A DNA stretch of 64,000 bases from Myxococcota bacterium. Lineage in GTDB: Bacteria > Myxococcota_A > UBA9160 > UBA4427. Position numbers and translations under genes: made by a program. Location: NCBI GenBank assembly GCA_028284295.1, contig JANQSB010000068.1, forward strand, positions 5,571 to 69,570, in the 5' to 3' direction. Position 1 is the first letter of the stretch. Every line of letters starts with the position of its first letter. The notes under the pieces are model-generated. The model ran no database searches. It was not told the DNA's origin and saw only the letters and a program-made list of their open reading frames with translations. Shown here piece after piece: positions 1 through 55,496 of this stretch.

Positions 1-1814
1 ACGCTGCCGGTCCCGACGCTCGTGACCTGGTGGTCGACGGCGATGTCGATCGCGCCCAGCCCGCGGGCCACGCCGAGGCTGAGGGCGCCCGTGGACTCGA
101 CCAGCCGGTCGATGATGCCCCGGTCGATCCGCTGCCACATCCAGCGGGCGGCAGCGAGGGTCGGGCGCGCGATGAACACCTCGTACATCTCTTCGAAGTA
201 GCCCCGGTTCAGGAAGAAGACATAGAGACGCTTCTGCCAGGCCGGGACGGGCCGGGAAGACCCCCGATCGCGCCGCGCGTAGGCGACGACCCAGCCCAGC
301 CCGGCGACCGCGAGAGGCACGAGCACCCAGGAGCTCGGTCCGACGCTTTGCTGCACCGGCATCCCTCCCACGGCCGTCGACAGGAAGTCCGCGAACCAGC
401 GCCACACGACCAGGAGCAGCGCGATCGCGAAGCCCGCCATCACCGCGATGCCGACGAGGTGCCGCGGCGAGAACGGTGCGGGGGCCACGCGCCCGCCCGG
501 ACCCACCCCGGAGACGCCGTGGCGGAACACCGTCGTGAAGGCCCGGAAGAGGACCATCGCGGTCGCGAAGACCGTACCCAGGCCGACGACCCACAGGGCG
601 GCGCTCGCCGCCCCGAAGCCCTGGGAGAGCCACAGGCCCTGGTAGGCGCCCGAGAAGACCACGAGGGGCGGAAGCGCGGACAGGACCAGGGCCCATGCGA
701 AGAGCCCGCTCGCGGAGCCGTCCGTCTCTTCTTCGGCCAGGCCGAGACGGCGATGCGTACCCGCCAGCGCGTTGCCGGTGGAGAGAAAGAAGAAGGCCTT
801 GAAGAAGCCGTGGGCGAGCAGGTGGAAGATCGCCGCGACGAATGCGCCGACGCCGCAGAGGAAGGTCATGAAGCCCAGCTGGCTGATCGTCGAATAGGCC
901 AGGGTGCGTTTCACGTCGGTCTGGGTCAGCGAAACGAGAGCGGCGAACAGGGCCGTGACGGCGCCCACGCAGGCGATGACGGCCATTGCCGGGCCCGAGA
1001 GAACGATCACGGGGCTCAGTCGGACGAGGAGGAAGGGGCCCGCGTTGACCATCGTCGCCGCGTGGATCAACGCCGAGACGGGCGTGGGCGCCTCCATCGC
1101 GAGCGGCAGCCAGGCGTGCGTCGGCACCTGCGCGGACTTTCCCATCGCGCCGACGAAGATGCACAGCGTGAGCAGGGTGACCGTGGACGTCGGGATCTCG
1201 GTGCCGGAGCGCGCCTGCGCGAGGATCTCCGGGATGCTCAGCGTCTCGAAGGTCGTGAAGATCAGGATGATGCCCAGGAAGAGGCCCAGGTCCGCCACGG
1301 CGTTGACCAGGAAGACCTTCGTGGCGGCCTGGGCGGCGGCGGGACGCTCGGCGTAGTGGGAGATGAGCAGGTAGGAGCAGAGCCCCATGACCTCCCAGAA
1401 CATGAAGGTCAACAGCAGGTTGCTGCTCATCACCAGCACCGTCATCGCGCCCGTGAAGAGTGCGGTGAGGGCGAAGAAGCGGCTGTGTCGCGCGTCGCCC
1501 ACCATGTAGCGAGCGGCGTAGACCTGGACGATCGTGCTGACGCCGGTGACCAGCAAGAGAACCACCACCGTGAGCCGATCGAGGAAGAGACCCGCGTCGA
1601 TCTCGAGCCTTCCGGATTCCAGGAGGCGATAGAGATGGATCTCGATGGCGCCATTCGCCGATACGTCCAGGAACGCCCCGATGGACAGGAGGAACGACGC
1701 GGCGATCGCCGGGATCACGAGCCGGTGGCCCTTGCCCTCCAGGCGGGTCCCGAAGAGGGCCAGGGCGAGTGCGGCGGCGAAGGGAAGGAGCGGGATCAGC
1801 GCGTAGACGGACAT
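1..1814 (-). CDS. NuoL/MrpA-N-type antiporter-like subunit (candidate DabB-type partner); 3' end lies beyond the window edge
   Basis: Absent from the ORF track because there is no stop inside the window. My minus-strand translation from ATG 1814-1812 reads MSVYALIPLLPFAAALALALFG... It contains WEVMGLCSYLLISHY and GKSAQVPTHAWLPLAMEAPTPVSALIHAATMVNAG, typical of NuoL/MrpA/DabB. A distal RGYFEEMYEVFIARP segment resembles the NuoL lateral-helix region. The gene starts 5 nt after the mrpD stop. Confidence 0.85.
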   Translation of the reverse strand, partial: MSVYALIPLLPFAAALALALFGTRLEGKGHRLVIPAIAASFLLSIGAFLDVSANGAIEIHLYRLLESGRLEIDAGLFLDRLTVVVLLLVTGVSTIVQVYAARYMVGDARHSRFFALTALFTGAMTVLVMSSNLLLTFMFWEVMGLCSYLLISHYAERPAAAQAATKVFLVNAVADLGLFLGIILIFTTFETLSIPEILAQARSGTEIPTSTVTLLTLCIFVGAMGKSAQVPTHAWLPLAMEAPTPVSALIHAATMVNAGPFLLVRLSPVIVLSGPAMAVIACVGAVTALFAALVSLTQTDVKRTLAYSTISQLGFMTFLCGVGAFVAAIFHLLAHGFFKAFFFLSTGNALAGTHRRLGLAEEETDGSASGLFAWALVLSALPPLVVFSGAYQGLWLSQGFGAASAALWVVGLGTVFATAMVLFRAFTTVFRHGVSGVGPGGRVAPAPFSPRHLVGIAVMAGFAIALLLVVWRWFADFLSTAVGGMPVQQSVGPSSWVLVPLAVAGLGWVVAYARRDRGSSRPVPAWQKRLYVFFLNRGYFEEMYEVFIARPTLAAARWMWQRIDRGIIDRLVESTGALSLGVARGLGAIDIAVDHQVTSVGTGS

Positions 1815-1819
1815 GACGC

Positions 1820-3283
1820 TCAGATGCCCCCGCCCGACACGAAGTCGATCAGCACCTTGAAGATCGGGTCGCTGAAGATTCCGAGCGCGATCAGCGCGAC
1901 CGACGCCACGCCCAGGCTCGCCATCAGCGAGCCGGGTGCCATCGGGGCCTCGGCGCTGGTGGCACCCGGCCGGTGGAACCAGGCGGCGAAGACCCTGACG
2001 AAGTACCCGAGCGTGAGCAGGGTGGAGGCGACCACCGAGAAGGCGGCGAGATAGTGCTCCGCCTCGAGGGCTCCCAGCACGATGTTCCACTTGCCGAAGA
2101 ATCCGCCCGTGGGAGGCAGACCGACCATGCCCACCGCGACGACGATCAGGGCGCCGGTCAGCCACGGCGAAGGCCGGCCCATCGCGCGCAGATCGTCGAG
2201 GGTGCGCACCCCGTGGCCGTGGACGAGGGCGCCGGCGATCATGAACAGCACCGCCTGCATGACGGAATCGTTGAGCAGGTAGAAGATCCCGCCGGCGAAG
2301 CCGGTGGCGTTGCCGAGGCTCACGCCGACCAGGATCAGGCCGACGTGGCCGATCCCTCCATAGGCGAACATCCGCTTGAGGTCCGTCTGGATCAGCGCCA
2401 GGGCCCCACCGACCACGGCTGCGAGCACCCCGACCTCCTCGAGGAGCACCAGGACGGGGACCGCGCTCACTTCGGCGCCGGGCAGGATCAGCGAGTACTC
2501 GATTCGGACCCAGGCCACCAGCGCGACCTTGGTCACGGTCGAGGCGAGCAGGGGACTGACCGTCTCGGGCGCATTCTGATAGGCGTCCGGCAGCCAGCCG
2601 TGGAGCGGAATCAGGGCCATCTTGATCGACAGCCCCAGGAAGATGTAGATCAGCCCGCCGGCGACCGCGGTCGATGTCAGCAGGTCGGGAATCCGGGTGG
2701 CCAGATCGGCCATGTTCAGGGTGCCGGTCGCGACGTAGAGGTGGCCCACCCCGAGCAGGTAGAGGCTTGCGCCCAAGGAGCCCAGCAGCAGGTATCGGAA
2801 GGCGTAGACCGCGCCCTTCCCGCCGGATGCGCCCACGAGCGCATAGGCCGCGAGCGCGGAGACCTCGAGGAAGACGAAGAGGTTGAAGAGATCCGCGGCA
2901 AAGACGATCCCCACGAGACCGGCCAACAGCACGAGGATCAGCGTGTAGTACGACACGCTCCGCTCGAGCCGGGCAGGCACGACCACGCGCCCGTACACGA
3001 GCGTCAGCAGCGAGACGGTGCTCACGGCCAGGACCACGACCGCCGCCAGGGAGTCGTTCAGCCAGGCAATGCCGATGGGCGCGGCCCACCCTCCCAACGC
3101 GTACTCGATCGGGCCCTGCGTCAGGACGATCCTCAGATTGTAGGCCGCCACGAGGGTCATGAGCGCGATCGCGCCCAGCGCGATGGGCTGGCGCCACGCG
3201 CTTCGCCTCGCGGTGACGATCGGCAGGGCGACTCCCGCGACGAAGGGGATCAGGAACAGGAGAATGGACATCCCCATGCTCAT
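1820..3283 (-). CDS. mrpD: MrpD/MbhH/NuoN-class antiporter-like subunit (487 aa)
   Basis: ORF 1820..3637 trimmed to ATG 3283 (MSMGMSILLFLIPF...). Polytopic, with the IPLHGWLPDAYQNAPETVSPLL motif. ATGA overlap with the mrpC stop at 3280. Confidence 0.85.
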   Translation of the reverse strand: MSMGMSILLFLIPFVAGVALPIVTARRSAWRQPIALGAIALMTLVAAYNLRIVLTQGPIEYALGGWAAPIGIAWLNDSLAAVVVLAVSTVSLLTLVYGRVVVPARLERSVSYYTLILVLLAGLVGIVFAADLFNLFVFLEVSALAAYALVGASGGKGAVYAFRYLLLGSLGASLYLLGVGHLYVATGTLNMADLATRIPDLLTSTAVAGGLIYIFLGLSIKMALIPLHGWLPDAYQNAPETVSPLLASTVTKVALVAWVRIEYSLILPGAEVSAVPVLVLLEEVGVLAAVVGGALALIQTDLKRMFAYGGIGHVGLILVGVSLGNATGFAGGIFYLLNDSVMQAVLFMIAGALVHGHGVRTLDDLRAMGRPSPWLTGALIVVAVGMVGLPPTGGFFGKWNIVLGALEAEHYLAAFSVVASTLLTLGYFVRVFAAWFHRPGATSAEAPMAPGSLMASLGVASVALIALGIFSDPIFKVLIDFVSGGGI

Positions 3284-3678
3284 TCGGCCCTTTGCAGCAC
3301 TTCGTTCTCGTCCAGGCTGCGGTACTTCCGGTAGGCCGCCGAGACCAGGGCGAGAGACACTCCGAGGGTGGCGACCTGGACGACGATCGCGGTGACCGTC
3401 AAAGCGTGGGGCAGTGGGTTGGCGTACTCCACCGCGTCGACGGGCATCGAGTCGGGCCGGATGACTGGAACGGTCGCGCCCTCCTTCGAACTGAAGGCCA
3501 CCAGGAAGAAGATCACGCTGGTCTGCAGGATGTAGAGCCCGATCAGCTTCTTCACCAGGTTGGTGTGCACCACCATGATGTAGAGGCCCCACAGAAAGAG
3601 GGTCACGAAGACGATGAAGTTGGGCCGCAGGAGCCACTCGTGGACCAGATCAAGCACGGAAAGGCTCGTCCTCGGCAT
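3280..3678 (-). CDS. mrpC: MrpC/MnhC (NuoK-like) subunit
   Basis: 132-aa ORF with three predicted TM helices (FIVFVTLFLWGLYIMVV, LIGLYILQTSVIFFLVAF, TAIVVQVATLGVSLALV). The start could be GTG 3657 instead. Confidence 0.8.
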   Translation of the reverse strand: MPRTSLSVLDLVHEWLLRPNFIVFVTLFLWGLYIMVVHTNLVKKLIGLYILQTSVIFFLVAFSSKEGATVPVIRPDSMPVDAVEYANPLPHALTVTAIVVQVATLGVSLALVSAAYRKYRSLDENEVLQRAE

Positions 3679-4111
3679 CGTCCTCGTCGTCCGCCGAGAG
3701 GCTGATCGAAATCGATACCCCCGTGACGGCGACGTCGAGGGCGACGCCGATCTGGGTCAACAGGATCCCCAGGTAGCGCCGGGAGGCTTCGTCCAGACCC
3801 GGGACCTGCAGGTTTGCGTAGTTGAGGTAGACGCCACCGCCGATCAGGCAGAGACCGCCGACGCCCGCGAAGAGCAGCAGCCCCAGCCCGTCGCCATGCA
3901 GGACCATCCGGGAGAGCCAGGTGTCCTTCGTGTCCAGCCCGTAGATCAGGTTCGCGAGGATCATGCTCGCCGCCAGCACGACGCCTCCCACGAAGCCTCC
4001 ACCCGGCCCGTACTGGCCGAAGACGAGGACATAGACGCCGAAGAGCTGCGCCACCGGAATCACGATCCGCCCGAGGGTGCGCACGATCACGCTGTCGTGT
4101 GAGTGGATCAT
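3650..4111 (-). CDS. mrpB: MrpB/MnhB-domain subunit (MbhF-like)
   Basis: 153 aa with the GQYGPGGGFVGGVVLAAS motif characteristic of the MnhB domain. 4-nt overlap with the upstream gene. Confidence 0.75.
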   Translation of the reverse strand: MIHSHDSVIVRTLGRIVIPVAQLFGVYVLVFGQYGPGGGFVGGVVLAASMILANLIYGLDTKDTWLSRMVLHGDGLGLLLFAGVGGLCLIGGGVYLNYANLQVPGLDEASRRYLGILLTQIGVALDVAVTGVSISISLSADDEDDAEDEPFRA

Positions 4112-4632
4112 CGAGCGCCGTTTCGCAGCAGGAGTGCGCAGGCGATGCCTGCCGTGAAGATGACCAGGGTCTCGACGAGGGTGTCCAGCGCGCGGTAGTC
4201 CATGAGGATGGCCGTCACGACGTTCGGGGTCCGGGTCTGTTCGACGCTGTTCTCCAGATACAACGGGGAGAGATGCGTGCTCGCCGGAGAGCGCGGGTCG
4301 TTGAACACGGGGAGGTCCCCGGCGCCGTAGAGCATCAGCAGGGCGAGCAGGGGCAATCCGATCAGCGCGACCTTCGGCACCGGCAGTCGTCGGAGCTCCG
4401 TGTCCTTCTCTTCGGTGCGCGAGAGCGTCAACAGGAAGAACACCGTGGCGAGGCCAGCGCCCACCACGGCCTCGACGAACGCGACGTCCACCGCGCCGAC
4501 GAGAGCCCAGACCAGCGCCAGGACGAAGCTGTACGAGCCGAGGATGAACACGCCCGAGACGAGATCCTTGACCAGGATCGCCCCGGCGGCGGTCATGACC
4601 AGCAACACGAGGAGGGGCAGCTCGAGAATCAA
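4108..4632 (-). CDS. Split MrpA C-terminal-like subunit (DUF4040-like N half plus MnhB-like C half; MbhD/E-like)
   Basis: 174 aa. The N half (LLVLLVMTAAGAILVKDLVSGVFILGSYSF...AVDVAFVEAVVGAG) looks like DUF4040. The C half has NVVTAILMDYRALDTLVETLVIF, typical of MnhB. Confidence 0.7.
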   Translation of the reverse strand: MILELPLLVLLVMTAAGAILVKDLVSGVFILGSYSFVLALVWALVGAVDVAFVEAVVGAGLATVFFLLTLSRTEEKDTELRRLPVPKVALIGLPLLALLMLYGAGDLPVFNDPRSPASTHLSPLYLENSVEQTRTPNVVTAILMDYRALDTLVETLVIFTAGIACALLLRNGAR

Positions 4633-4931
4633 GCGTTTTCTCCCGAGCCGGGCCGGAGGCCCGATCGATAGGCCGCGCGGATCGTCGCGTGGGCGATCAC
4701 CGGGTTGAGCAGGTAGATCAGGCCCAGCACGACCAGGATCTTGAGGAGGTTGGTATTGAAACCCTCGTAGAGGGCGAGTCCCACCAGAGTGAAGAGCGCT
4801 CCGAGCGAGTCCGTGAGCGACAAGGCGTGGGTCCGGGCGAACACGTCCGGCAGGCGCAGCATCCCGATCGAACCGACGACGAGGAAGAAGAGCCCGATCA
4901 GGATCAGGACCGTGCCGAGCCCGACCATCAC
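4629..4931 (-). CDS. mrpG: MrpG/MnhG subunit
   Basis: 100 aa with the GSIGMLRLPDVFARTHALS motif of the MnhG/PhaG family. Overlaps both neighbours by 4 nt. Confidence 0.8.
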   Translation of the reverse strand: MMVGLGTVLILIGLFFLVVGSIGMLRLPDVFARTHALSLTDSLGALFTLVGLALYEGFNTNLLKILVVLGLIYLLNPVIAHATIRAAYRSGLRPGSGENA

Positions 4932-5197
4932 TCTCGTTCCCCCCGCTCTTCCAAGAACTTGGTGATGGCCAACGCGCCGACGAGGTTCAGGATCGCATAG
5001 CCCGTGGAGATGTCGACGAACATGTCGACCCGTCCGAAGATCGTGCCGAGCAGGACGATCAGGATGATCGCCTTGGTCGAGATGCCGTTCAGGCCGAGCA
5101 CGCGATCGAAAGCCGTGGGACCTCGCACGACGCGATAGAGGTACACGAGCATCACCGTCGTCAACGCGACGAGTACGAAGAAGAGGAAGGTGTTCAC
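4928..5197 (-). CDS. mrpF: MrpF/MnhF subunit (89 aa)
   Basis: C-terminal part of ORF 4928..5515, starting at GTG 5197 (VNTFLFFVLVALTTVMLVYLYRVVRGPTAFDRVLGLN...). GTGA overlap with the mrpE stop. Confidence 0.75.
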   Translation of the reverse strand: MNTFLFFVLVALTTVMLVYLYRVVRGPTAFDRVLGLNGISTKAIILIVLLGTIFGRVDMFVDISTGYAILNLVGALAITKFLEERGERE

Positions 5198-5661
5198 GAA
5201 TCGCTCGTTTCGGATCGGAACATGTCCGCCACCTTGCCTTCCAGTGCGCCGCCCACCAGGTCTTCGGTCGACTCCTCGTCGATGGCGTGCACCACGAGCT
5301 GCCCGGGCGCGACCTCCACCGTGATGGTTCCCGGCGTCAGCGTGATCGAGTTGCCGAGCACGACCAGCTCGCCGTCGCTCGTGAGCCGGGTGCGATGGCT
5401 CACGAGTCTCGGGGAGATCGGCAGCGACGGATGCAGGATCAGCCGGCTGACGTGCACCCCGCTCTTCAGGATGCGGCCGAAGAGCCAGGGCCCGTAGGCC
5501 AGCGCCGCGAGCCACGAGAGCCGCCGCTTGTGGGGGAGGACCGGGTTCACCCAGGCCACCAGTCCGGCGATGATCGCGCCCACGGCCACGTGGGCCGGGG
5601 ACAGCGTCGCCGACAAGCTGAGCCAGAGCGCGAAGAGCACGGCCGCCGTCACGAACCTCAC
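5194..5661 (-). CDS. mrpE: MrpE/MnhE subunit (~155 aa)
   Basis: C-terminal tail of the artefactual 989-aa ORF 5194..8163 (VRFVTAAVLFALWLSLS...NSITLTPGTITVEVAPGQLVVHAIDEES). GTG 5661 overlaps the dabA stop; GTG 5652 is an alternative start. Confidence 0.75.
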   Translation of the reverse strand: MRFVTAAVLFALWLSLSATLSPAHVAVGAIIAGLVAWVNPVLPHKRRLSWLAALAYGPWLFGRILKSGVHVSRLILHPSLPISPRLVSHRTRLTSDGELVVLGNSITLTPGTITVEVAPGQLVVHAIDEESTEDLVGGALEGKVADMFRSETSDS

Positions 5662-8525
5662 AGCTCGACGGGCTCCCAGCTCGAGTCCGTGTTGTAGCGC
5701 TGGAAGGTGAAGGTCTCCCGATCGAGGACGACCAGGTTCAGCCACTCGTTGTGGAAGAAGTGCTGGAGGATCTCGTGCCGGGCGATGATCCCTCCGACGA
5801 TCGAGGGCTCGGCCTCGATGATCGCCAGCAGGCGCATCGGCTCGTGGAAGTGGACGTCGCCATCGTTGACCGTCTGCAGGGGGAGGCCGGTCGCCAGATC
5901 GCTCTGGGAGCCGTACATCACGCCGATCCCCCCCACGATGTTGTGGATGACCTTGCTGCCGCTGCCGTACTTCCACGGATCCGTCGCCGAGGTGTAGTAC
6001 TGCATGTTGATCCACTCGCCGACCACGAGCGGGGCCGTCATGATCTTCTCGAGGATCGCGCCCTCCGGGTCGGTGCTCGCATCGTAGGAGTGCAGGAAGC
6101 AGCGCCCGCCGATGTTCACGCCCTTCGTCAGCGCTCGGCGGCCGATGATGAAGGCGGCGTTTCCGGAGAGTCCCCATTCGGGCCGCGTGGTCGCCCAGTC
6201 GATCGCTCGCGACGCCGCGTGGGCATGCGCCTTCTCCGGCGTCATGCCGCGGGGGGTCCCTGGGATGCGAGCGCATCGCTCCAGGGCCTGTTGCTGCCCC
6301 GCCTCCAGGAAGCAGCGACCCAGCTCCTCCAGGTCGTCGCGGTGCGTGTCGGGCAGGTCCACGAGGTCGTAGAAGGCGACCCGATCGGCCGTGGTGTCGT
6401 GCTTGGCAGCGAGGAAGTAGGTGTCCTCGGGGACCTGGAGTCCGCGCTTCGCCAGCTCGGCGCGCACCTCGGGACGGTTCCCCATCTCGGCGAACGCCCG
6501 CGCGTTGGGGTCTCCGTGGCGTCCGCCGCACGCGCCGCAGTCGAGCGCCGCCGCGTAGGGATTGTTCTCGGTCGTGCTGCCGTGACCGCACAGCACCACG
6601 AAGCGAGCGAAGTCGTCGATGAGGCCGATCGTGCGCAGTCCGCCCTCCACGAAGTCGGCCTGCTGTTCGATCGAGAATCCGCGAGCCAGCTCGACCGGGA
6701 GTCCGCCCACGTGGGGCGGGTCTTCGGTGGCGGAATCCACCGGAACGCTGGTCACGACCGGCTGGACGAACCACCCGCGGACGCTGCGCACCAGCGCTTC
6801 GTAGGGGCGCCGCAGCAGGGTCTTGCCCACCAGCGCGGCGCTGAAGAAGAGGCCGAGGAGGTCGACCAGCAGGAAGGCCGCGATGGGGTTGTGCTTGAGG
6901 TCGTGGAGCAGGTGCTCCCCGAGCTGCTTCCAGCGCGATCCCGATGCGTAGCTCTCGAGGGCCTGCTCCTCCCCGGCGCGGGGCAGCTCGAGGAGCGCGT
7001 TCGAGGGCGTCAGCAGCACCGGACAGAGCGGAAACGACTCCTCGGTGTCGAAGCTGCGGTGATCGATGGGGATGCCGAAGAAGCCGGCGTAGCCGAAGGT
7101 CTCGAAGGCCCCGGTCTCCTCGAAGTGCCGGCGAAACGGCTCGGAGCGCACGTCGATGCAGAAGGCTGCCTGAGCCAGGGGACGGCCATCGATCGCCGGA
7201 GCCGAGGCCCGGTGATCCGCGATCTTCGACAGGAGCTCGTGGCGGAAGGAGTCCTCGTAGGCTTCCAGCCAGACCGGGTTCTGCCGCTCTTCGGGAAAGG
7301 CGTCCAGCCAGGCCAGCATCGTCTGTGCGTCCTCGCGTCGCATCGAGCGCAGGTCGTTGGCCGGGAGATCCAGGAGCTGTGCGAGGTGGAAGAGGCGCCA
7401 CGCGTCCCGACACACGGCGAGCTTGTTGGCATCGACCTGGGCATGAGGCGTCTCGCCGCTTGCCGAGAGCTGGCTCGTGATCGCGGGCAGGGTTCCGGCC
7501 ACGCCCCACTGGCGACGCGTCTCGACGGCGACGAGCTCGACTTCGTAGAACAAGCGAACGGCGAGATACTGCGTCACGTCGATCGGGTTGGACTTCTGGA
7601 TCGGATCGTCGGGGTTCAGATCGCGCCAGCGGACCAATCCCGTCCAGCCCGGCAGCTGAGCGAGCACCCGGGCCAGGTAGTCCGGCCAGCGGGCCTCCGG
7701 GATCTGCAGTGTCTCGAGGGCGCCCCGGACGGCCGCTTCCGGGTCGTCGGGCAGCGCGGCGAGCTTCTCGGTGAAACGCTCGATGCCCATCAGCCGACCG
7801 CTCGCGTCGTGCTGGGCGAGCTCCCGCCAGGCGGCATAGAAGCCGGCGCGTTTCGACGGCATCTCCCATCCGGCCATGCCCTCGTCGACGAAAGAGGAGA
7901 CCCACTTGATCACCTGGGAGTCGATCCGGGCGACGACGGAGTTGCCCGTCGCTTCCTCTACCCAGTCGCTGAGCGCGCGACGAAAGGGAAGCTCGACCGT
8001 CCCGGCCCCTTCGGGCGCTCCAGCCCCGGCGTCCGCATGTCCGGACGAAGGATCGACCAGGTCGAGCAGGGAGAGCGCGGCCTGCCAGAGCGCGCCGACA
8101 TCGGCGCCCGCGGCCGCGCCGGAGCGCGGCCGCGACAGCGCTCCATGGCTCGTGACCTGCCATTCGAAGAGCGCGGGTTCCAGCGCGTCGATCCCGTGCA
8201 GGAGATGCGTCCGCCGTACCTCGGACGCCGAGATCGTTCGGGAAGGCAGCGACACCGATTCGCCGCCGTCGGGCGCGATTCGCGCGAGGGCCCGGTCGAT
8301 GCTGCGTTCCCCGATGCGGCCCGCGCGGTGCAACTCACGGTACTCGGCCAGGGGCAGGTAGCCTTCGGCGCCGAGCAGCTGCCTCGCCTGCTGGACCGCC
8401 TCGTCGAAAGGCAGGTGCTCGAGACCCTGGATCGGGTTGTGGGATACGAACCCCTTCATCGGCCAGAACTGCGAGACCGGTTCGGCGGCCTCCTGGATCT
8501 GGTCGCGCAGCGCGTTCGTCGTCAT
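5658..8525 (-). CDS. dabA: DabA (DUF2309) beta-carbonic-anhydrase-like inorganic-carbon transporter subunit, 955 aa
   Basis: N terminus ...FWPMKGFVSHNPIQGLEHLPFDEA, central AAFCIDVRSEPFRRH, and distal VLCGHGSTTENNPYAAALDCGACGG are the hallmark DUF2309/DabA blocks. Starts 3 nt after the SulP stop. Confidence 0.9.
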   Translation of the reverse strand: MTTNALRDQIQEAAEPVSQFWPMKGFVSHNPIQGLEHLPFDEAVQQARQLLGAEGYLPLAEYRELHRAGRIGERSIDRALARIAPDGGESVSLPSRTISASEVRRTHLLHGIDALEPALFEWQVTSHGALSRPRSGAAAGADVGALWQAALSLLDLVDPSSGHADAGAGAPEGAGTVELPFRRALSDWVEEATGNSVVARIDSQVIKWVSSFVDEGMAGWEMPSKRAGFYAAWRELAQHDASGRLMGIERFTEKLAALPDDPEAAVRGALETLQIPEARWPDYLARVLAQLPGWTGLVRWRDLNPDDPIQKSNPIDVTQYLAVRLFYEVELVAVETRRQWGVAGTLPAITSQLSASGETPHAQVDANKLAVCRDAWRLFHLAQLLDLPANDLRSMRREDAQTMLAWLDAFPEERQNPVWLEAYEDSFRHELLSKIADHRASAPAIDGRPLAQAAFCIDVRSEPFRRHFEETGAFETFGYAGFFGIPIDHRSFDTEESFPLCPVLLTPSNALLELPRAGEEQALESYASGSRWKQLGEHLLHDLKHNPIAAFLLVDLLGLFFSAALVGKTLLRRPYEALVRSVRGWFVQPVVTSVPVDSATEDPPHVGGLPVELARGFSIEQQADFVEGGLRTIGLIDDFARFVVLCGHGSTTENNPYAAALDCGACGGRHGDPNARAFAEMGNRPEVRAELAKRGLQVPEDTYFLAAKHDTTADRVAFYDLVDLPDTHRDDLEELGRCFLEAGQQQALERCARIPGTPRGMTPEKAHAHAASRAIDWATTRPEWGLSGNAAFIIGRRALTKGVNIGGRCFLHSYDASTDPEGAILEKIMTAPLVVGEWINMQYYTSATDPWKYGSGSKVIHNIVGGIGVMYGSQSDLATGLPLQTVNDGDVHFHEPMRLLAIIEAEPSIVGGIIARHEILQHFFHNEWLNLVVLDRETFTFQRYNTDSSWEPVEL

Positions 8526-8528
8526 CGG

Positions 8529-10157
8529 TCAGCCGGACTTCCTGCGCGCCGCCAGGCGATGCTCCGACAGGGCCCGGTGCCCTTCGAGTCCGGCCACCAC
8601 GAGCTCGCGGTCGTTCTCGCCGAACTCCGTCTGGAGGTACGAGAGACCCGACATGACCGTATGGTCGACGAAACGCGCAGCCGACATGTCCACGACGACT
8701 CGGGGGGAGGACTCCTGGACGATCCGTTTGCGCAACGCGATCCAGGTGCTGAATACGGCGGATTGGTCGACCTGGATCGTCGTTTCCTCGCCGCTGCGTT
8801 CGGATGCGATGCTGGGCCGGAAGAGGGAGAGGATCGGCGTGCCGTTGATGACGTTCATGACCGCCTTGACCCCGATCCCGATGCCGATACCGACCAGCAG
8901 ATCGGTGGCGAGTACGCCCAGGATGGTCGAGGAGAAGACGATGAGCTGCTCCGGACCGACCTTGTACATGTGGATGAATTCGTGAGGTGACGCAAGTCGA
9001 AAGCCCGTGAACACGAGCATGGCCGCCAGTGCAGCCAACGGAATCTGGTTGATCAGTGCCGGAACGAGCGCGACGAAGGCTAGCAGGAAGATGCCGTGGA
9101 ACATGTTCGCGAATCGGGTGCGGGCACCGTTGTCGATGTTCGCCTTGCTTCGCACGATCTCGGAGATCATCGGCAGCCCGCCGATGAAGGCGGCTGCCGT
9201 GTTGCCGATGCCGACCGCGAGCAGGTCCTTGTCGAAGTCGGTCTTCCGGCGCCACGGATCGATCTGATCGATCGCCTTGGCGCTCAGGAGCGACTCGACG
9301 CTGCCGATGAGCGAGAACATCACGATGTACTTGATGCCGACGCTCGTCAGCACGCCGGAGAAATCGGGGAAGGTGAGCGCGGTGAACATGTTGCTCGGTA
9401 CGTCGACCAGGTAGTGCGGTCCGAGCGCGTGGTCGTGGCCGCGGAACGCGTAGACCTGCTCGATACCGATGCCGAAGTACATGCCGAGCGGGACCGCGAT
9501 CAGGAGGACGAGCATCGGGGCCGGGACGATCTTGAGTCTCGGATTCCGGATGAACGGGAAGCCGAACATGATCACGAGGCTGAGGCCGCCGATGACCGCG
9601 ATCGCCGGGTTCATCTCCACGAAGTAGCTCGGAATCGCGGCGATGCGCTCCAGCGGGGTCCCCGACGCCTGGACGCCGAGCGCGATCGGGATCTGGGTCG
9701 ACATCACGAGAAAGCCGATCGAAGCGAGCAGGCCGTGAACCACCGCGGTCGGAAAGAACTCGCCCAGGACGCCCAGCCGGAAGACGCCGAAGAGGATCTG
9801 GATGGCACCCGCGGCGACCCCGACGCCCAGCGCCAGCCGGTAGGCATGGAGATCCGCCGCCGGATCCGCGCCCCCGGTGAACCCGAACTCGGTCACACAG
9901 CCCAGTGCGACGACGATGAGCCCGGCCGCCGGCCCCTTGATGGTGAGCTCGGAGTTGCTCAGGAAGGCGGACAGGATCCCGCCGATGATGGCGGTGAAGA
10001 CGCCTGCGATCGCGGGGTACCCGCACGCCAGCGAGATCGCCAGACAGAGGGGAAGCGCAATCAGGAAGACGAGGAACCCCGACAGCGCGTCGGCTCCGAA
10101 GTTTCGCTTCAAGCCCTGGAGCGTCCCTACGGGGACATCCGAGGTCTCGGGGTTCAC
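8529..10157 (-). CDS. SulP-family anion transporter with C-terminal STAS domain (BicA/sulfate-permease class)
   Basis: 542 aa. Polytopic core (GFLVFLIALPLCLAISLACGYP..., IKGPAAGLIVV...). C-terminal STAS-like VVVDMSAARFVDHTVMSGLSYLQTEFGENDRELVVAGL. GTG start with a GAGGGAGG RBS-like run upstream. Confidence 0.9.
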   Translation of the reverse strand: MNPETSDVPVGTLQGLKRNFGADALSGFLVFLIALPLCLAISLACGYPAIAGVFTAIIGGILSAFLSNSELTIKGPAAGLIVVALGCVTEFGFTGGADPAADLHAYRLALGVGVAAGAIQILFGVFRLGVLGEFFPTAVVHGLLASIGFLVMSTQIPIALGVQASGTPLERIAAIPSYFVEMNPAIAVIGGLSLVIMFGFPFIRNPRLKIVPAPMLVLLIAVPLGMYFGIGIEQVYAFRGHDHALGPHYLVDVPSNMFTALTFPDFSGVLTSVGIKYIVMFSLIGSVESLLSAKAIDQIDPWRRKTDFDKDLLAVGIGNTAAAFIGGLPMISEIVRSKANIDNGARTRFANMFHGIFLLAFVALVPALINQIPLAALAAMLVFTGFRLASPHEFIHMYKVGPEQLIVFSSTILGVLATDLLVGIGIGIGVKAVMNVINGTPILSLFRPSIASERSGEETTIQVDQSAVFSTWIALRKRIVQESSPRVVVDMSAARFVDHTVMSGLSYLQTEFGENDRELVVAGLEGHRALSEHRLAARRKSG

Positions 10158-10357
10158 GCGGCCCTCCCTCGTGCTGGCCCGGAGAGGCTGTTTGCATCAA
10201 GATCGCCTTCGCTGCCAGCCCTCCTCGGCGGTCTTCGACGGCGCGGCCCCGACGTACTGCGCCGTCCGAGCGCGTGGGGGAGGGCCCGAGCGCCCCGAGA
10301 CGCCGGCTCGCGAGCCCGTCGGGCCGGGGTGGACGCGTGCCGACCGCTGCCGCGCCG

Positions 10358-10388
10358 AAGAATTCATCAGATATTTCAATGATTTATC
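10358..10388 (-). promoter_or_regulatory. AT-rich island in the 405-bp region upstream of the sulP-dabA-mrp operon (candidate promoter/regulator site)
   Basis: aagaattcatcagatatttcaatgatttatc stands out against the GC-rich background. On the minus strand it contains TTGAAA and ATAAAT hexamers and an ATA-N11-TAT dyad. Confidence 0.25.
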
Positions 10389-10562
10389 GGTGAAGTTGCG
10401 GTGCGATGGAGGGACTCGGGTCCCTTCCGTCCTCTGGGAGGACACGCTCTCGGACAGGGATGCCGCTCTGGTGGTGCACCCAGCCCATCAGGCTCGACGG
10501 GCTCCGGATCGCCCGGGGGCCGGGACACGCCTCGTCCATGCGGGGCCTCCGGTCTGCCGCGG

Positions 10563-12029
10563 CTATTCGCCGAGCAGGTTGCCCACGCACTCGTCGAACA
10601 TCGCGACGAAGCGATCGTTGTCGTCTTCGGTCGTGTACGGAGACGTCAGGATCATGTTCTCCCAGGGCATCACCACGAAGCCCCGGTTGAGGGCGAAGAG
10701 ATTGAAGTACTCGTGGTAGCCGCCCAGGCCGATGCTGCGAACGGCGTCGAGACAGGTGTACGAATCGGTCGGTACGAAGTTGAGGTGCATCCGGGCGCCG
10801 GTCTGGGTGATCGAGAAGTCGACCTGGCGGCGCTCGATCACGCCACGCATCCCTCGAACGAGGTGGTCCATGGCGCCGACCATCCTTCCGTATGTCTCGT
10901 CGGTGTAGTAGTGCTCGAGGGCCAGCCGCAGGGCGCGCACCGCCAGGGGATTCGCGGCCATGGTCGTACCCTGGCCCAGGAAGCTCAGCACGCCCGCGCC
11001 GCCGGGCACGCTGAGGTCGTTCACCTTGGCGGCGTAGGCGTCTCCCACGGCTTCGCTCATTCCCAGGACGCCACACGGGATGCCTCCGGCGATGGGCTTT
11101 CCGGTCGTCCACATGTCGCCCTTCAAGTCCAGCTCCGTGAACATGCCGCGGGGCGTACTGGCCAGGGTGTGGGTCTCGTCGATGAGGAGCAGCGTCCCGT
11201 ACCGGTCGCAGAGCTCCCGGACGCCCTCGAAGTACCCGGGGCGGGGCACCACGAAGCCGCCGTCGGTCATCACGGGTTCGGTGACGAATACCGCGACGTC
11301 CCGGTCCCGAAGCGCGGCTTCGACGGAGTCGAGGTCGTTGAACTCGGCGATCTTCACCGCCGGGTCCGCGTGGCCCGGGAGGTAGTGGGGCCAGCGGGTC
11401 ACGGGCGGGAGATTCGGCTGGGGCTTCCAGTACATGCCCTCCTCGGGCGCGCCCATGTAGCCGAAGTTCGGGCTCAGGACCTTTCGCCGCCCGGTGACGA
11501 TCCGGGCGATGCTGATCGCGTTGCGGTTGGCGTCCGACGCGGAGAGCGTCATGAACCAGTACTTGAGGTCGATCATCTCCTGGAGGAGCCGCGTCGCGAG
11601 TACCGCTTCCTCGTTGGGGACCAGGCAGCCGAACGACTCGGACCGGACCGCCTCGGCGATGCCGCGGGTGACCTCGTCGTCCGGGGCGTGGCCCCAGAGG
11701 GTCGGCCCGTCGGCGTAGAAGTAGTCGACGTACTCGTTGCCGTCGGCGTCCCAGCAGCGCTGGTTCTTGGCCCTGTCCCAGTACCACAGATGGGGCAGGA
11801 GGAAGTCGTCGTTGCGCGGGTCGGGCATCCGCCAGTGGTTGCACCAGATGTTCGCCGTGCCGTTGACCATCGACTCCTTCGCTTCCTGGAAGCGCTCGGC
11901 GCTCTTCGGCGTTCGCGCGACGAAGAGCGAGACCTCGTCGTCGATGCGCTTCCACACCTGCTCCAGATCGATGCGGTCGTGGCGGGGGACGAGGTCGGCG
12001 GTCATGAAATCCCGGTCGTCGATGTTCAT
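10563..12029 (-). CDS. Class-III (GSA-aminomutase-like) PLP aminotransferase, 488 aa
   Basis: C-terminal part of ORF 10563..13322, from ATG 12029 (MNIDDRDFMT...), preceded by AGGAG. LLIDETHT...TTGKPIAGGIPCGVLG contains the PLP-lysine context. Confidence 0.85.
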   Translation of the reverse strand: MNIDDRDFMTADLVPRHDRIDLEQVWKRIDDEVSLFVARTPKSAERFQEAKESMVNGTANIWCNHWRMPDPRNDDFLLPHLWYWDRAKNQRCWDADGNEYVDYFYADGPTLWGHAPDDEVTRGIAEAVRSESFGCLVPNEEAVLATRLLQEMIDLKYWFMTLSASDANRNAISIARIVTGRRKVLSPNFGYMGAPEEGMYWKPQPNLPPVTRWPHYLPGHADPAVKIAEFNDLDSVEAALRDRDVAVFVTEPVMTDGGFVVPRPGYFEGVRELCDRYGTLLLIDETHTLASTPRGMFTELDLKGDMWTTGKPIAGGIPCGVLGMSEAVGDAYAAKVNDLSVPGGAGVLSFLGQGTTMAANPLAVRALRLALEHYYTDETYGRMVGAMDHLVRGMRGVIERRQVDFSITQTGARMHLNFVPTDSYTCLDAVRSIGLGGYHEYFNLFALNRGFVVMPWENMILTSPYTTEDDNDRFVAMFDECVGNLLGE

Positions 12030-29458: not shown

Positions 29459-30075
29459 TGTCAGAAATTTCGATCGCGCCGGCCCCCGACGAGACCCCGG
29501 CGAACGGCCATACGACCCGGCGCCTCGAGACCCGCCGCAAGCTGCTGGAAGCGGGCGCCGAGCTCTTCGCCGAGGGCGGGGTGCGCGCCGTCACGAGCAC
29601 CCGCATCGCGCGAAGGGCCGGTGTGGCCACGGGCACCTTCTACCTCCACTTCCCCGACAAGCACGCGCTGTTCGAGGAGCTGGTGGACGCAGCCCTGGAG
29701 GAGATGCGCCCGCAGTCCGACGCCGAACGCGCCGGCTCGGGAGAGGACTCGATGCGCCGCGACCTGGAGCGGATGCTCGAGGTGGCCGCGCGCCGCCGGA
29801 ACCTGATCCGCGCCGTCTTCGACCGTGGCGAGAGCTCGGGTCTGGCCGAACGGATCCAGGACCGCATCGCGCGCGGTTTCGAGCAGCGATACGAGCGCGT
29901 GTTCCGCGAGCGCGGCATCCCGCTCCATCCGGGAGCTGCCGCCCAGGCCCGCGCGGCCGTGCTGGTTCGTGTCATCGCGTGGTGGGTCGAGGAGCCCGCA
30001 CGCGCAGAGCGAGACGAGATCGTCGACGTGTTGATGGCACTCGCCCCGGGGCGGGTGCAGGAGGAGTCCCCTTGA
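29458..30075 (+). CDS. TetR-family transcriptional regulator
   Basis: 205 aa. RRKLLEAGAELFAEGGVRAVTSTRIARRAGVATGTFYLHF. Confidence 0.9.
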   Translation: MSEISIAPAPDETPANGHTTRRLETRRKLLEAGAELFAEGGVRAVTSTRIARRAGVATGTFYLHFPDKHALFEELVDAALEEMRPQSDAERAGSGEDSMRRDLERMLEVAARRRNLIRAVFDRGESSGLAERIQDRIARGFEQRYERVFRERGIPLHPGAAAQARAAVLVRVIAWWVEEPARAERDEIVDVLMALAPGRVQEESP

Positions 30076-31400
30076 GCGAGACAGCGACCGCGCAGACCCA
30101 GCCCCTTCCGACCGGATTCCGGACCCCCGAGCAGGAGCAGGCGGCCAATGGCCGCGGTGTCGCCCCGGCCGACGAGCTGGCGCTGGAGGACCTCAACCCG
30201 CTCAACGCACACCTGTTCCGCGAGAACCGCTGGCACGGCTACTTCGAGCGCCTGCGCCGAGAGGACCCGGTCCACCTGAACGAGATCGAGACCGCCGGCC
30301 GCTACTGGTCCGTGACGAAGTACGACGACATCAAGGCGGTCAGCTCGGATTGGGAGACCTTCTCGTCGGCCCACGGAATCACCCTGGGATTCCGGGTCGG
30401 TTCCGACTCTGCGAACATGATGCAGCTGGGATCGCGTCCCCCCTTCATCTCCCAGGATCCGCCCACCCAGACCGAGCAGCGCAAGACCGTGCGACCTGCG
30501 GTGGCCCCCCGCAACCTCGCCAGGCTCGAGCCGCTCATCCGGGAGCGGACCTGCCACGTGCTCGACGCGCTGCCCGAGAACGAGAGCTTCGATTGGGTGG
30601 ATCGGGTGTCGATCGAGCTCACCACGTTGATGCTGGCGACGCTCTTCGACTTCCCGCTCGAGGATCGCCGCAAGCTGACCCGCTGGTCCGACGTCGTCTT
30701 CGCCATTCCCGAGCCCGGCGGCATCGTCGAGTCCGGCGACCAGAAGCGCGCGGAGCTGTTCGAGTGCCTCCAGTACTTCTCGCGACTCTGGGACGAGCGC
30801 CGGCAGAACCCCGGGGACGATCTCATCTCGATGCTCGCGCACGGAGAAGCCACCCGCGACCTGTCCGCCGCCGAGCACCTCGGCAACGTCCTGCTGCTCA
30901 TCGTCGGGGGCAACGACACGACCCGCAACACCATGTCGGGGAGCGTCTACTCGCTGATGCACCGCTTCCCGGATCAGGGACGCAAGCTGGTCGCGAACCC
31001 GGGCCTGATGCGGAACGCGGTGTCCGAGATCATCCGCTGGCAGACGCCCCTCAACTACATGCGCAGGACGGCGACCCGCGACTGCGAGCTGCACGGCCGG
31101 GAGATCCGGAAGCACGACCAGCTCCTGATGTGGTACGTGTCCGCCAACCGTGACGAAGAGGTCTTCGAGAACGGGGACGTCCTCGACATCGAGCGCCCGA
31201 ACGCGTCGCGGCACCTCTCCTTCGGCTACGGAATCCACTTCTGCATGGGCAGCCGGCTGGCCGAGCTGCAGCTTCGCGTGCTGTGGGAGGAGATCCTCGA
31301 GCGGTCCCTGAAAATCGAGGTGCAGGGGGAGCCGACCCGCGCCTTCTCGTCCTTCGTGAACGGGTACACGCATCTGCCTGTGGTGATTCGCCGCAGTTGA
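30072..31400 (+). CDS. Cytochrome P450, CYP153-like (terminal alkane/alkyl hydroxylase type)
   Basis: Frame of ORF 29979..31400. The probable TTG start at 30072 overlaps the TetR stop. LLLIVGGNDTTRNTMSG (CYP153-type I-helix), EIIRWQTP, and heme loop FGYGIHFCMGSRLA. Confidence 0.85.
   Translation: MSETATAQTQPLPTGFRTPEQEQAANGRGVAPADELALEDLNPLNAHLFRENRWHGYFERLRREDPVHLNEIETAGRYWSVTKYDDIKAVSSDWETFSSAHGITLGFRVGSDSANMMQLGSRPPFISQDPPTQTEQRKTVRPAVAPRNLARLEPLIRERTCHVLDALPENESFDWVDRVSIELTTLMLATLFDFPLEDRRKLTRWSDVVFAIPEPGGIVESGDQKRAELFECLQYFSRLWDERRQNPGDDLISMLAHGEATRDLSAAEHLGNVLLLIVGGNDTTRNTMSGSVYSLMHRFPDQGRKLVANPGLMRNAVSEIIRWQTPLNYMRRTATRDCELHGREIRKHDQLLMWYVSANRDEEVFENGDVLDIERPNASRHLSFGYGIHFCMGSRLAELQLRVLWEEILERSLKIEVQGEPTRAFSSFVNGYTHLPVVIRRS

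Positions 31401-54014: not shown

Positions 54015-54018
<4 letters not shown>
53557..54018 (-). CDS. GFA (CENP-V-like) zinc protein, 153 aa
   Basis: Tail of ORF 53557..55089, from GTG 54018 (GTGA overlap with the monooxygenase stop). [10 protein letters not shown]...[15 protein letters not shown]...RCPSCRG. Confidence 0.8.

Positions 54019-55496
<1,478 letters not shown>

Follow-up and report, generated by a model that had tools for sequence, protein, structure and literature searches.

The locus at the beginning of a 64,000-nt stretch of Myxococcota DNA (contig JANQSB010000068.1 of the assembly GCA_028284295.1; the whole stretch is referred to below as the window, and coordinates are counted along it) raises the question of which membrane machine is served by DabA, the carbonic anhydrase-like protein of the DAB inorganic-carbon pumps, when its gene stands in one operon with the genes of a SulP-family anion transporter, Mrp-type subunits and antiporter-like subunits of the complex I type. 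The operon, of which ten genes occupy the minus strand of 1-10157, probably encodes an uncharacterised multi-subunit pump, a third architectural type of the DAB family. The family features present in the sequence are a full-length DabA, its zinc ligands, its finger carboxylate and a co-encoded NuoL-like PF00361 protein devoid of the Lys/Asp site of transmembrane helix (TM) 12.

Ten consecutive minus-strand open reading frames (ORFs) were recognised in this part of the window, and the Pfam and NCBIfam profile hidden Markov models applied to their products identified every one of them at the position that the initial annotation had given to it:

8529-10157, minus strand: SulP-family anion transporter, the first gene of the operon (Sulfate_transp, 5e-55; a weak C-terminal STAS match, 8e-4)
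5658-8525, minus strand: DabA, 955 aa, the beta-carbonic anhydrase-like cytoplasmic subunit of DAB-type hydratases (PF10070, 8e-264, profile positions 1-747 of 747)
5194-5661, minus strand: MrpE-like subunit (MNHE, PF01899, 1e-31), its start overlapping the dabA stop by 4 nt
4928-5197, minus strand: MrpF-like subunit (PF04066, 8e-13)
4629-4931, minus strand: MrpG-like subunit (PF03334, 2e-22; TIGR01300, 80.3 bits, above the cut-off of 63.1)
4108-4632, minus strand: MbhD and MbhE in fusion, of the MrpA C-terminal or NuoJ-like domain type (MbhD PF13244, 5e-15; MbhE PF20501, 8e-8; NCBIfam NF009159, 163 bits, above the cut-off of 141)
3650-4111, minus strand: MnhB/MrpB-like subunit (PF04039, 6e-21)
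3280-3678, minus strand: MrpC/NuoK-like subunit (PF00420, 6e-20)
1820-3283, minus strand: MrpD/MbhH-type antiporter-like subunit, 487 aa (profile match, 3e-53)
1-1814, minus strand: NuoL/NdhF-type antiporter-like subunit, the first 604 codons in the window (Proton_antipo_N and Proton_antipo_M; TIGR01974 NDH_I_L, 441.5 bits, above the cut-off of 407.5)

The gene order proposed at first holds, apart from the sixth gene, which had been described as a DUF4040 plus MnhB protein and is MbhD plus MbhE, that is, of the MrpA C-terminal-domain type. The tight junctions were also borne out on recomputation, with a 3-nt gap between SulP and DabA, a 5-nt gap between MrpD and NuoL, and 4-nt start/stop overlaps at six junctions (DabA to MrpE, MrpE to MrpF, MrpF to MrpG, MrpG to MbhD/E, MbhD/E to MnhB, and MrpC to MrpD); an overlap of MnhB with MrpC, of 29 nt with the ATG at 3678 or of 8 nt with the alternative GTG at 3657, had gone unlisted. 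Seven genes lie between dabA and nuoL. DabA is, as had been claimed, a member of one tightly coupled and conserved operon with SulP, the Mrp-type small subunits, MrpD and the NuoL-like subunit, all genes of which are translationally coupled and inherited as a block.

The operon runs past base 1 of the window, with about 45-130 NuoL codons and a whole NuoM-like gene lying outside. This eleventh gene (490-516 aa) starts 8-13 nt after NuoL (647-732 aa) in 20/20 relatives with enough DNA; in Pseudohaliea rubra DSM 19751 and a Rariloculaceae chromosome, a NuoL-like protein of 678-701 aa is directly followed by a 493-494-aa PF00361 gene, and the public gene calls with precomputed Pfam annotation, made independently for P. 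rubra and for a 6.6-Mb Pseudohongiella assembly, contain these eleven genes as well. The full order in the relatives is SulP-DabA-MrpE-F-G-MbhD/E-MnhB-MrpC-MrpD-NuoL-NuoM. The operon ends after NuoM, because the genes further downstream vary between the genomes, being those of a TRAP transporter, of an opposite-strand ABC transporter, or a kinase. Three antiporter-like subunits are therefore to be counted in place of the two initially assumed, since the NuoM gene follows NuoL just outside the window. By its matches in the PDB the eleventh protein is a canonical NuoM (plant Nad4, 8e-122; Paracoccus NuoM, 1e-121; MrpD only 9e-34), with all canonical charged residues in place, namely the Glu of TM5, the Lys of TM7 and of TM8, the His of TM11 and the Glu of TM12 that is specific to NuoM.

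The DabA protein is homologous over its full length to DabA2 of Halothiobacillus neapolitanus (PDB 9rd0_A, 3e-120). Two sets of its positions are of particular importance for the assignment:

6537-7160, minus strand: codons of the DabA zinc ligands (Cys456, 7158-7160; Asp458, 7152-7154; His648, 6582-6584; Cys663, 6537-6539)
6828-6884, minus strand: membrane finger (elbow) hairpin of DabA, residues 548-566, IAAFLLVDLLGLFFSAALV, with the Asp555 codon at 6861-6863

The four zinc ligands align with the CxD...H...C active-site motifs of DabA2 and are invariant in 35 members of the clade and in 41/42 of the DabAs derived from the loci compared, the exception being a frameshifted copy (L028); judged from these alignments, the predicted beta-carbonic anhydrase zinc site is intact. 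The hairpin is the sole strongly hydrophobic 19-mer of the protein (Kyte-Doolittle 2.45) and aligns with the DabA2 finger, in which Glu444 corresponds to Asp555. All DabAs of both clades partnered by NuoL and NuoM have Asp as the finger carboxylate, and all sampled DabAs of the DAB1 and DabB-DabA types have Glu. An AlphaFold 2 monomer model of the protein had a mean predicted local distance difference test score (pLDDT) of 70.6, and was of low confidence in those loops that touch DabB in the known complex structures, and a Foldseek search of this model against the PDB (library to 2026-04-08, presumably without DAB2 9rd0) returned no match with E<0.001 and was uninformative.

The best PDB matches of the NuoL-like subunit are cyanobacterial NdhF1 (9e-79) and Paracoccus NuoL (5e-77), followed by MrpA (1e-43) and DabB2 (3e-38), with bit scores of 263-269 for NuoL/NdhF versus 135 for DabB2. 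The previous designation of this subunit as NuoL/MrpA-N-like holds in its NuoL part only, both NuoL and NuoM being of the complex I type and not of the MrpA/MrpD type (best PDB matches: about 1e-78 to NdhF/NuoL for the one, about 1e-121 to Nad4/NuoM for the other). The E-value ranking was rejected as a means of telling DabB from NuoL: a control, the Dictyobacter DabB, likewise places NuoL marginally ahead of DabB2. Since the ranking does not discriminate by itself, residue-level and length features were used instead. The equivalents of E144 (TM5), D178, K229, H254, D303, H334, H338 and K342 are invariant in the NuoL-like subunits, the Lys of GKSAQ and the His-His-Lys chain are kept, which leaves the cytoplasmic and central parts of the proton path intact, and the NuoL Lys399/Asp400 site (SKDE, TM12) is changed to Y-x-x-L-W in 20/20 complete Mrp-linked orthologs and in the partial gene of the window. 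The TM12 Lys/Asp is also lost in three further Mrp-linked metagenome NuoLs and in both of the Mrp-less NuoLs examined.

In the recently solved DAB2 structure, DabA2 inserts a finger-like helix-loop-helix into DabB2, where the finger Glu444 occupies the place of NuoL Lys399/Asp400 (TM12b) and the E444A/Q substitution abolishes activity, and DabB2 is without the TM5 Glu of the NuoL Arg/Glu pair (PMC13144422). By homology, the NuoL-like subunit would be the equivalent of DabB, because its lost TM12 Lys/Asp is exactly the site replaced by the DabA finger carboxylate in DAB2. The partner is not, however, of the DabB type, since it is a full-length NuoL with the TM5 Glu and the lateral helix (HL): instead of the approximately 530-560 aa, lost TM5 Glu and short HL that characterise DabB, it has 647-732 aa, an invariant TM5 Glu and an HL, and in a full-length ortholog (L019) about 130 residues of spacer, including the HL motif, precede the C-terminal anchor TM. 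In complex I, the TM5 Glu, absent from classical DabBs, points toward the adjacent subunit. The simplest reading of these residues is a NuoL that would be DabB-like on its distal side, where the DabA Asp would complete the outer half-channel, and complex-I-like on its proximal side toward NuoM. The earlier statement that DabA is wired to more than a lone DabB is accordingly only half right: the NuoL-like subunit itself carries the structural signature of a docking partner of DabA, the loss of the TM12 Lys/Asp.

The remainder of the module consists of an Mrp/Mbh-type base (E, F, G, the C-terminal part of A, B, C, D), which is combined with the complex-I-type NuoL-NuoM pair and encodes neither NuoH nor redox subunits. 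From the Mrp A-G set, the subunits B, C, D, E, F and G are encoded, while all that corresponds to MrpA is a separate C-terminal domain of the MbhD/E type, the place of the MrpA N-terminal part being taken by a complex-I-type NuoL; the Mrp part has a single antiporter-like subunit of its own and no lateral-helix subunit. The split MrpA and the E-F-G-first order fit the group 3 Mrp systems (PMC5703873). The best PDB matches of MrpD are MbhH (6cfw_H, 6e-61), the MBS subunit 6u8y_H (1e-59) and MrpD 7qru_D (2e-57), and its TM5 Glu, TM7 Lys, TM8 Lys and TM12 Lys are kept, invariant in 23 orthologs. With the residues assigned to the Mrp Na+ route, including the role of D35f, taken from Steiner and Sazanov (PMC7419157), it was found that MbhD/E Glu54 (the equivalent of MrpA E706 and MbhD E69) and the D...E pair (equivalents of D792/E796) are invariant in 23/23 orthologs and that MrpF Asp31 (the equivalent of Mrp D29f) is kept. 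The conserved cation-path set of MrpF D35 with MrpC H37/H40 or MbhG D37/H41 is nevertheless missing, in contrast to the equivalents of E706, D792 and E796 and to the MrpD Glu, which have been retained.

The distribution of the operon was assessed in two scans, in one of which the window DabA was compared with one genome per GTDB species, yielding 48 loci to which the ten window proteins were mapped by tblastn, and in the other of which metagenome contigs were searched with an aligned set of DabA representatives that share 39-53% identity with the first sequence of the set and 40-51% with the window DabA. The neighbourhoods agreed with the arrangement seen in the window: in 32 further loci (23 from genomes and 9 from metagenomes, labelled as five phyla) the Mrp genes lie between dabA and nuoL, and the order from SulP to NuoM is the same. 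Every DabA at least about 50% identical, with DNA downstream of a full-length dabA, has the Mrp-linked order (23/23 genome loci), and no locus with such a DabA and a full-length dabA had Mrp-free downstream DNA. The hosts are Gammaproteobacteria of the Rariloculaceae, Halieaceae (including the isolate P. rubra), Arenicellaceae and Pseudohongiella, as well as metagenome-assembled genomes (MAGs) labelled as Myxococcota, Acidobacteriota/Bryobacterales (contigs >1 Mb), Planctomycetota (Pirellulales/Fuerstiella) and Alphaproteobacteria (Rhodospirillaceae). An exhaustive HMMER search gave 1865 representative DabA clusters (50% identity, E<1e-30), only a handful of which are at least 50% identical to this DabA, and the clade contains >120 clusters at 90% identity (56-87% identical, about 955 aa) from marine and other metagenomes; the Mrp-linked DabA clade is, hence, a small branch of the family, yet a common one in the sampled environments.

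Two disrupted copies were observed. In a Planctomycetota MAG (L037 6540-9080, CAUZRQ010000194.1), a 514-aa ORF corresponds to the N-terminal half of DabA without the His and Cys zinc ligands and is followed after 37 nt by a NuoL-like gene and then by the contig end, which could reflect degeneration of the copy, an error of assembly or a split gene. The dabA of an otherwise complete Mrp-linked operon (L028 10001-12858) matches in two frames (52% and 67% identical) and is either a frameshifted pseudogene or an assembly error.

More distant DabAs differ in their partners. Those 36-44% identical, of Chloroflexia and Rhodothermales, belong to a classical DabB-DabA pair with no Mrp genes. A DabA-NuoL-NuoM architecture without the Mrp genes occurs in four loci (L051, L052, L055 and L056), with NuoL 45-54% and NuoM 44-58% identical to the Mrp-linked ones; in one of them, whose name suggests a groundwater metagenome (L051 9986-19776), DabA of 1087 aa, NuoL of 659 aa and NuoM of 506 aa are followed downstream by Usp and SulP. 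In neighbour-joining trees the Mrp-linked DabAs form one clade, and the Mrp-less DabA-NuoL-NuoM group is its sister. Because this sister clade lacks the Mrp genes, the Mrp module is an add-on to the DabA-NuoL-NuoM core and not the primary partner; from the initial proposal that DabA is wired to a whole Mrp arm, the conserved co-encoding stands and the primacy of Mrp does not. Across 19 operons, each of the nine membrane subunits diverges pairwise in step with DabA (r = 0.73-0.92), so the operon block travels as a unit. An upstream minus-strand ORF of the same groundwater-labelled locus (8028-9143) has a weak match to the CsoSCA catalytic domain (E 1.4e-4).

The DAB1 type, DabB-DabC-DabA, was found in 21 loci (L057-L102, L115), where DabC matches the NuoM of the operon at 25-31% identity over about 165-325 aa by tblastn, an alignment that supports the view of DabC as a putative NuoM remnant. 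Several of the DAB1-type loci have two DabB-like genes in tandem. One further metagenome contig (JAAUXZ010045741.1, L112 1-13117) carries a stand-alone group-3 Mrp cluster on the minus strand, in which E, F, G, a fusion of MbhD, MbhE and MnhB, C and D are accompanied by a second antiporter-like gene (Proton_antipo_N), and a DAB1-type DabB/DabC/DabA locus about 2 kb away, divergently transcribed, with an Omp85 gene between. The order E-F-G-A'-B-C-D-D2 of this cluster is that of the window operon, in which NuoL sits where L112 has its second antiporter-like gene. L112 is a second, independent association of Mrp with DAB.

The SulP companion precedes dabA in every Mrp-linked locus with upstream DNA, as a divergent paralog (20-24% identical) in 4 genome and 2 metagenome loci, and it accompanies the DabA-NuoL-NuoM family generally, being present in the Mrp-linked loci, in the Mrp-less L051 and in clade C of the COGNAT survey. 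The NCBIfam scores of 115.8 bits for BicA (NF050096, cut-off 880) and 140.5 bits for DauA (cut-off 614) are below both thresholds, and the best PDB matches are SLC26Dg, a fumarate transporter (4e-18), and BicA 6ki1 (1e-16), BicA being no better. By these profile scores the protein is to be classified as a SulP-family member only, below the BicA equivalog level; it probably moves bicarbonate or a counter-anion.

The closest known systems include the DAB2 of H. neapolitanus (DabA2-DabB2, 9rd0, PMC13144422) and the MpsAB of S. aureus, which share with the present operon the full-length DabA homology, the zinc ligands, the finger with a membrane-buried carboxylate and a partner that is a NuoL-like PF00361 protein without the NuoL TM12 Lys/Asp. 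They differ from it in that the partner here is a full NuoL of 647-732 aa keeping the lateral helix and the TM5 Glu that DabB lost, the finger residue is Asp and not Glu, dabA and nuoL are not adjacent, and the operon adds nine further membrane subunits and SulP. The cryo-EM preprint on the DAB1 of Thermocrinis albus (DabA-DabB-DabC, 10.64898/2026.05.01.722082) reports DabC next to DabB and a structural match of DabC to the NuoM half that touches NuoL. A three-subunit core with a NuoM-related protein beside the NuoL-like subunit is thus common to both, whereas the NuoM here is of full length (490-516 aa) with its proton-transfer residues intact, DabC is half-size with those residues hydrophobic, and the Mrp module is additional here.

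The cyanobacterial NDH-1MS/MS' complexes (NdhF3/NdhD3/CupA/CupS; NdhF4/NdhD4/CupB) serve as a working analogy, with a CO2-hydrating peripheral protein on a NuoL-type plus NuoM-type pair at the distal end of the arm. CupA is, however, unrelated to DabA, and the cyanobacterial arm is driven by a redox module, of which none is encoded here; the present system is not an NDH-1MS, because it has no CupA homolog and its NuoL-like subunit reaches 207 bits versus the 588.7 cut-off of TIGR01960 ndhF3_CO2. Nor is it complex I, because NuoH and the redox module are absent and only NuoL-, NuoM-, MrpD-, NuoK-like and NuoJ-like (MbhD/E) subunits are encoded between unrelated variable flanks. The group-3 Mrp systems (cyanobacterial mnh/mrp; Aphanothece halophytica, PMC5703873) are similar in the MrpA split into a short MbhD/E-like protein, the separate MrpB, the irregular E-F-G-first order and the multiple antiporter-like genes, and the cyanobacterial cluster is co-regulated with carbon uptake; they differ in the DabA and SulP in the operon here, the complex I types of the distal NuoL/NuoM, and the change of MrpF D35 to Asn and of the MrpC site to Gln. 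The operon does not encode a canonical Mrp antiporter, because MrpA-N is replaced and two cation-path residues are changed. The Pyrococcus MBH and MBS (6cfw, 6u8y) also use an Mrp-type module with a single MrpD-like subunit as the membrane base for a soluble catalytic module, and their subunits are the best PDB matches of MrpD, MrpC and MrpF here. Unlike them, the present operon has no NuoH/MbhM-like connector and no NuoB/D-like subunits, and its carbonic anhydrase-like catalytic module would attach at the opposite (NuoL) end.

The literature search found no description of a DabA-Mrp or DabA-NuoL-NuoM system, with most subscription journals outside its range, and neither is mentioned in the DAB discovery preprint, the 2024 review of the dissolved inorganic carbon (DIC) toolkit, both of the 2026 structure papers or the Mrp review. 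This agrees with the initial impression that no characterised DabA-Mrp assembly is known, the architecture having been only partly glimpsed in the COGNAT survey (SulP and NuoM near ybcC). The survey of Klimchuk et al. (2017) describes a clade C with ybcC upstream of a nuoL homolog and with SulP (COG0659) and NuoM (COG1008) nearby; its authors reasoned that more membrane subunits move more ions and proposed an exergonic ion pump, the function of DabA then being unknown (PMC5700660). Unlike in the operon considered here, the Mrp small-subunit COGs are named in neither the text nor the figure legend of that survey, and clade C is probably the Mrp-less DabA-NuoL-NuoM form.

The mechanism that would unite these observations is that of a DAB-family vectorial CO2 hydratase mounted on an arm of NuoL, NuoM, MrpD and small subunits and powered by downhill ion flow. 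Its DabA-NuoL-NuoM core is quite likely correct, and the mechanism as a whole is about as likely as not. DabA would dock on the NuoL-type subunit in the manner of its docking on DabB in the DAB1 and DAB2 structures, the finger Asp555 would complete the periplasm-side half-channel lost by NuoL, and NuoM would lie beside NuoL, where DAB1 has its half-NuoM remnant DabC. In the Mrp-linked subclade, MrpD and the small subunits would extend this pair into a redox-free complex-I-like arm, NuoL-NuoM-MrpD-(MbhD/E, MrpC, MnhB)-MrpF-G-E. Downhill ion flow through the arm would drive the conformational gating that leads to one-way CO2 hydration, with HCO3- trapped in the cytoplasm; the flow would be that of H+ via the three antiporter-like channels, possibly exchanged against Na+ via the modified small-subunit path, and SulP would handle bicarbonate or a counter-anion in the same circuit. 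In seawater the pH gradient is small or inverted and CO2 makes up <1% of DIC. Several ions per turnover, or the use of a Na+ gradient, would suit such alkaline, Na+-rich and CO2-poor surroundings; the CO2 fraction of DIC at high pH has been tabulated (PMC10880623). In heterotrophs without RuBisCO, the bicarbonate may feed the biotin carboxylases and anaplerosis, and the supply of bicarbonate to carboxylases has already been proposed for DABs/MpsAB in heterotrophs (DAB discovery preprint). A bolder form of this reading is tentative and on balance doubtful, namely that all eleven products, or ten without SulP, make one supercomplex in which the arm is redox-free, DabA is the "peripheral arm" at the NuoL tip, Na+/H+ exchange and not simple proton influx drives the one-way CO2 hydration in abundant marine heterotrophs, and a living intermediate shows the descent of DabB and DabC from a NuoL-NuoM pair.

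Several points weigh against such a pump with an Mrp extension. Of the NuoL Arg/Glu pair, Arg175 has been replaced by Ser, Ala or Gly, the TM11-12 loop of the NuoL-like subunit is unlike that of NuoL, and seven genes intervene between dabA and nuoL. At the conserved Asp35f position of the Mrp/MBH/MBS MrpF stands Asn37 (23/23 orthologs, aligned to 6z16_F, 6cfw_B, 6u8y_B and 7qru_F), and MrpC has Gln52 where MbhG has Asp37 and MBS has Glu, with Ile at the MbhG His41 position (both 23/23 orthologs; the register of MrpC relies on the MBH/MBS alignments, 6u8y_G at 1e-14 and 6cfw_G at 9e-10). The invariance of the Asn and Gln in the small-subunit path argues, on the alignments, for a putative function rather than decay. 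The taxonomic labels of the MAGs may be wrong, and the physical attachment of the Mrp module is something we infer, as are, entirely, the direction of the ion flow and the physiological role. Above all, the Mrp genes could form a separate antiporter, since the Mrp-less sister implies that DabA-NuoL-NuoM presumably works alone. It is, accordingly, possible, if rather unlikely, that three separate co-expressed machines share an ion circuit and make no contact, a DAB1-like DabA-NuoL-NuoM, an independent Mrp Na+/H+ antiporter and a Na+- or H+-coupled SulP bicarbonate transporter, with Mrp recycling Na+ or correcting the pH for the other two. Besides the sister clade, this would be in line with the cyanobacterial Mrp-like mnh operon (slr2006-2013), which belongs to the low-CO2 NdhR/CcmR regulon (PMC4390856) and whose suggested role is a Na+ export that sustains Na+/HCO3- symport (PMC4390856; PMC11360081), and with L112, where a separate group-3 Mrp cluster stands beside a DAB1-type locus and is divergent from it. 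However, the Mrp part of the present operon, with its one antiporter-like subunit and no lateral-helix subunit, falls short of the canonical Mrp with MrpA and MrpD and of L112 with two such subunits, whose second antiporter-like gene has its exact gene position taken by NuoL; the two otherwise conserved Na+-path positions are Asn and Gln throughout; the TM5 Glu of NuoL and all coupling residues of NuoM are kept, as expected in a longer chain; and the operon block has never been found split.

An alternative role for the same genes, that of an alkaline-pH/Na+ homeostasis device in which DabA would hydrate metabolic CO2 for protons, SulP would export bicarbonate down the membrane potential and the Mrp arm would swap Na+ for H+, is improbable. 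The Mrp systems are classic determinants of alkaline and Na+ resistance (PMC5703873), the hosts are marine heterotrophs with no RuBisCO in the window, the Mrp-linked form is mostly marine-labelled and one Mrp-less form is from groundwater (as the record names indicate), and the substrate and direction of SulP are not fixed by its sequence. On the other hand, every characterised DabA system is a net DIC accumulator whose structure disfavours product loss, SulP also occurs with the Mrp-less form (L051 and COGNAT clade C), and the upstream regulators differ between the genomes, being of the LysR type in P. rubra and of the ArsR type in Pseudohongiella. A meaningless adjacency, due to chance, a decaying remnant or a DabA clade without carbonic anhydrase chemistry, is scarcely credible: the disrupted dabA of L028, the half dabA of L037 and the only moderately confident monomer model (pLDDT 70.6) would speak for it, but 32 independent loci have the same order with overlapping stop and start codons, the zinc ligands and channel residues are invariant, and all subunits co-diverge.

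The coupling of the ion gradient to one-way CO2 hydration in DABs continues to be investigated, structures of DAB1 and DAB2 having first appeared in 2026, and the DAB pump proposed here offers a natural contrast to them, with the same DabA chemistry on a full NuoL and a full NuoM, with or without the Mrp extension, and with the finger Glu changed to Asp. Through this contrast, the stoichiometry and specificity for ions and the part played by the NuoL TM12 site become accessible to direct tests, and one cultured host with the operon, P. rubra DSM 19751, is available. The clade connects three modular lineages, the NuoL/NuoM of complex I, the Mrp/MBH modules and DAB, and supports a NuoL-NuoM origin of DabB-DabC. 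The operon is common in marine Gammaproteobacteria and related MAGs without RuBisCO nearby and could add to the heterotrophic "dark" DIC uptake; if the supercomplex reading is true, it would represent a sodium- or multi-ion-geared CO2 pump in abundant marine heterotrophs.

The region preceding the operon contains one feature of possible regulatory significance:

10158-10562, minus strand: sulP leader, 405 nt, presumed promoter/operator region, with an AT-rich island at about 10356-10395

The island at 10356-10395, CACCGATAAATCATTGAAATATCTGATGAATTCTTC, lies within an otherwise 69%-GC leader and may be an operator. 9-mers similar to GATAAATAATCA are present in the leaders of five relatives; these 9-mers are common to close relatives only, and no clade-wide leader motif was found. 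A promoter scan of 1-10800 revealed no promoter-like site, the sulP leader having no match to the sigma-70 consensus, and Rfam, applied to the whole window and to the leader, gave no element, hence no known riboswitch, including the Na+/Li+ classes. Six terminator-like matches in 1-10800 (3.3 +/- 1.8 expected) were dismissed, all being within coding sequence with weak T-tails, and an 82-aa ORF upstream of sulP (10197-10445), with no Pfam match, was treated as non-coding. Beyond the leader the window has unrelated genes of amino-acid metabolism, the gene next to the leader being that of a class-III aminotransferase. Different regulators precede sulP in the relatives, with two LysR-type genes in P. 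rubra (L049 6203-7828) and an ArsR/HTH_5-type gene in Pseudohongiella (L050 7562-7918); neither regulator type occurs in the window.

The window contains no RuBisCO or carboxysome genes, as had been noted at first, and its remaining genes are of the heterotroph type, including those of isocitrate dehydrogenase, fucosidase, cytochrome P450s, FMO-like monooxygenases, aldehyde dehydrogenase and a GGDEF protein. A 91-nt tRNA-Ser(tga) called by ARAGORN at 40604-40694 on the minus strand lies inside a high-GC3 ORF and is probably a false positive, Rfam reporting no tRNA there, whether its gathering threshold or a limit of E = 1 was applied. Three FMO-like (Baeyer-Villiger-type) flavin monooxygenases (44651-46153, 54015-55496 and 57909-59348) are clustered with two cytochrome P450s (29979-31400 and 60920-62212), and the same cluster includes an aldehyde dehydrogenase, a fatty-acid hydroxylase and a phytanoyl-CoA-dioxygenase-like gene, which suggests a lipid- or hydrocarbon-oxidising heterotroph.

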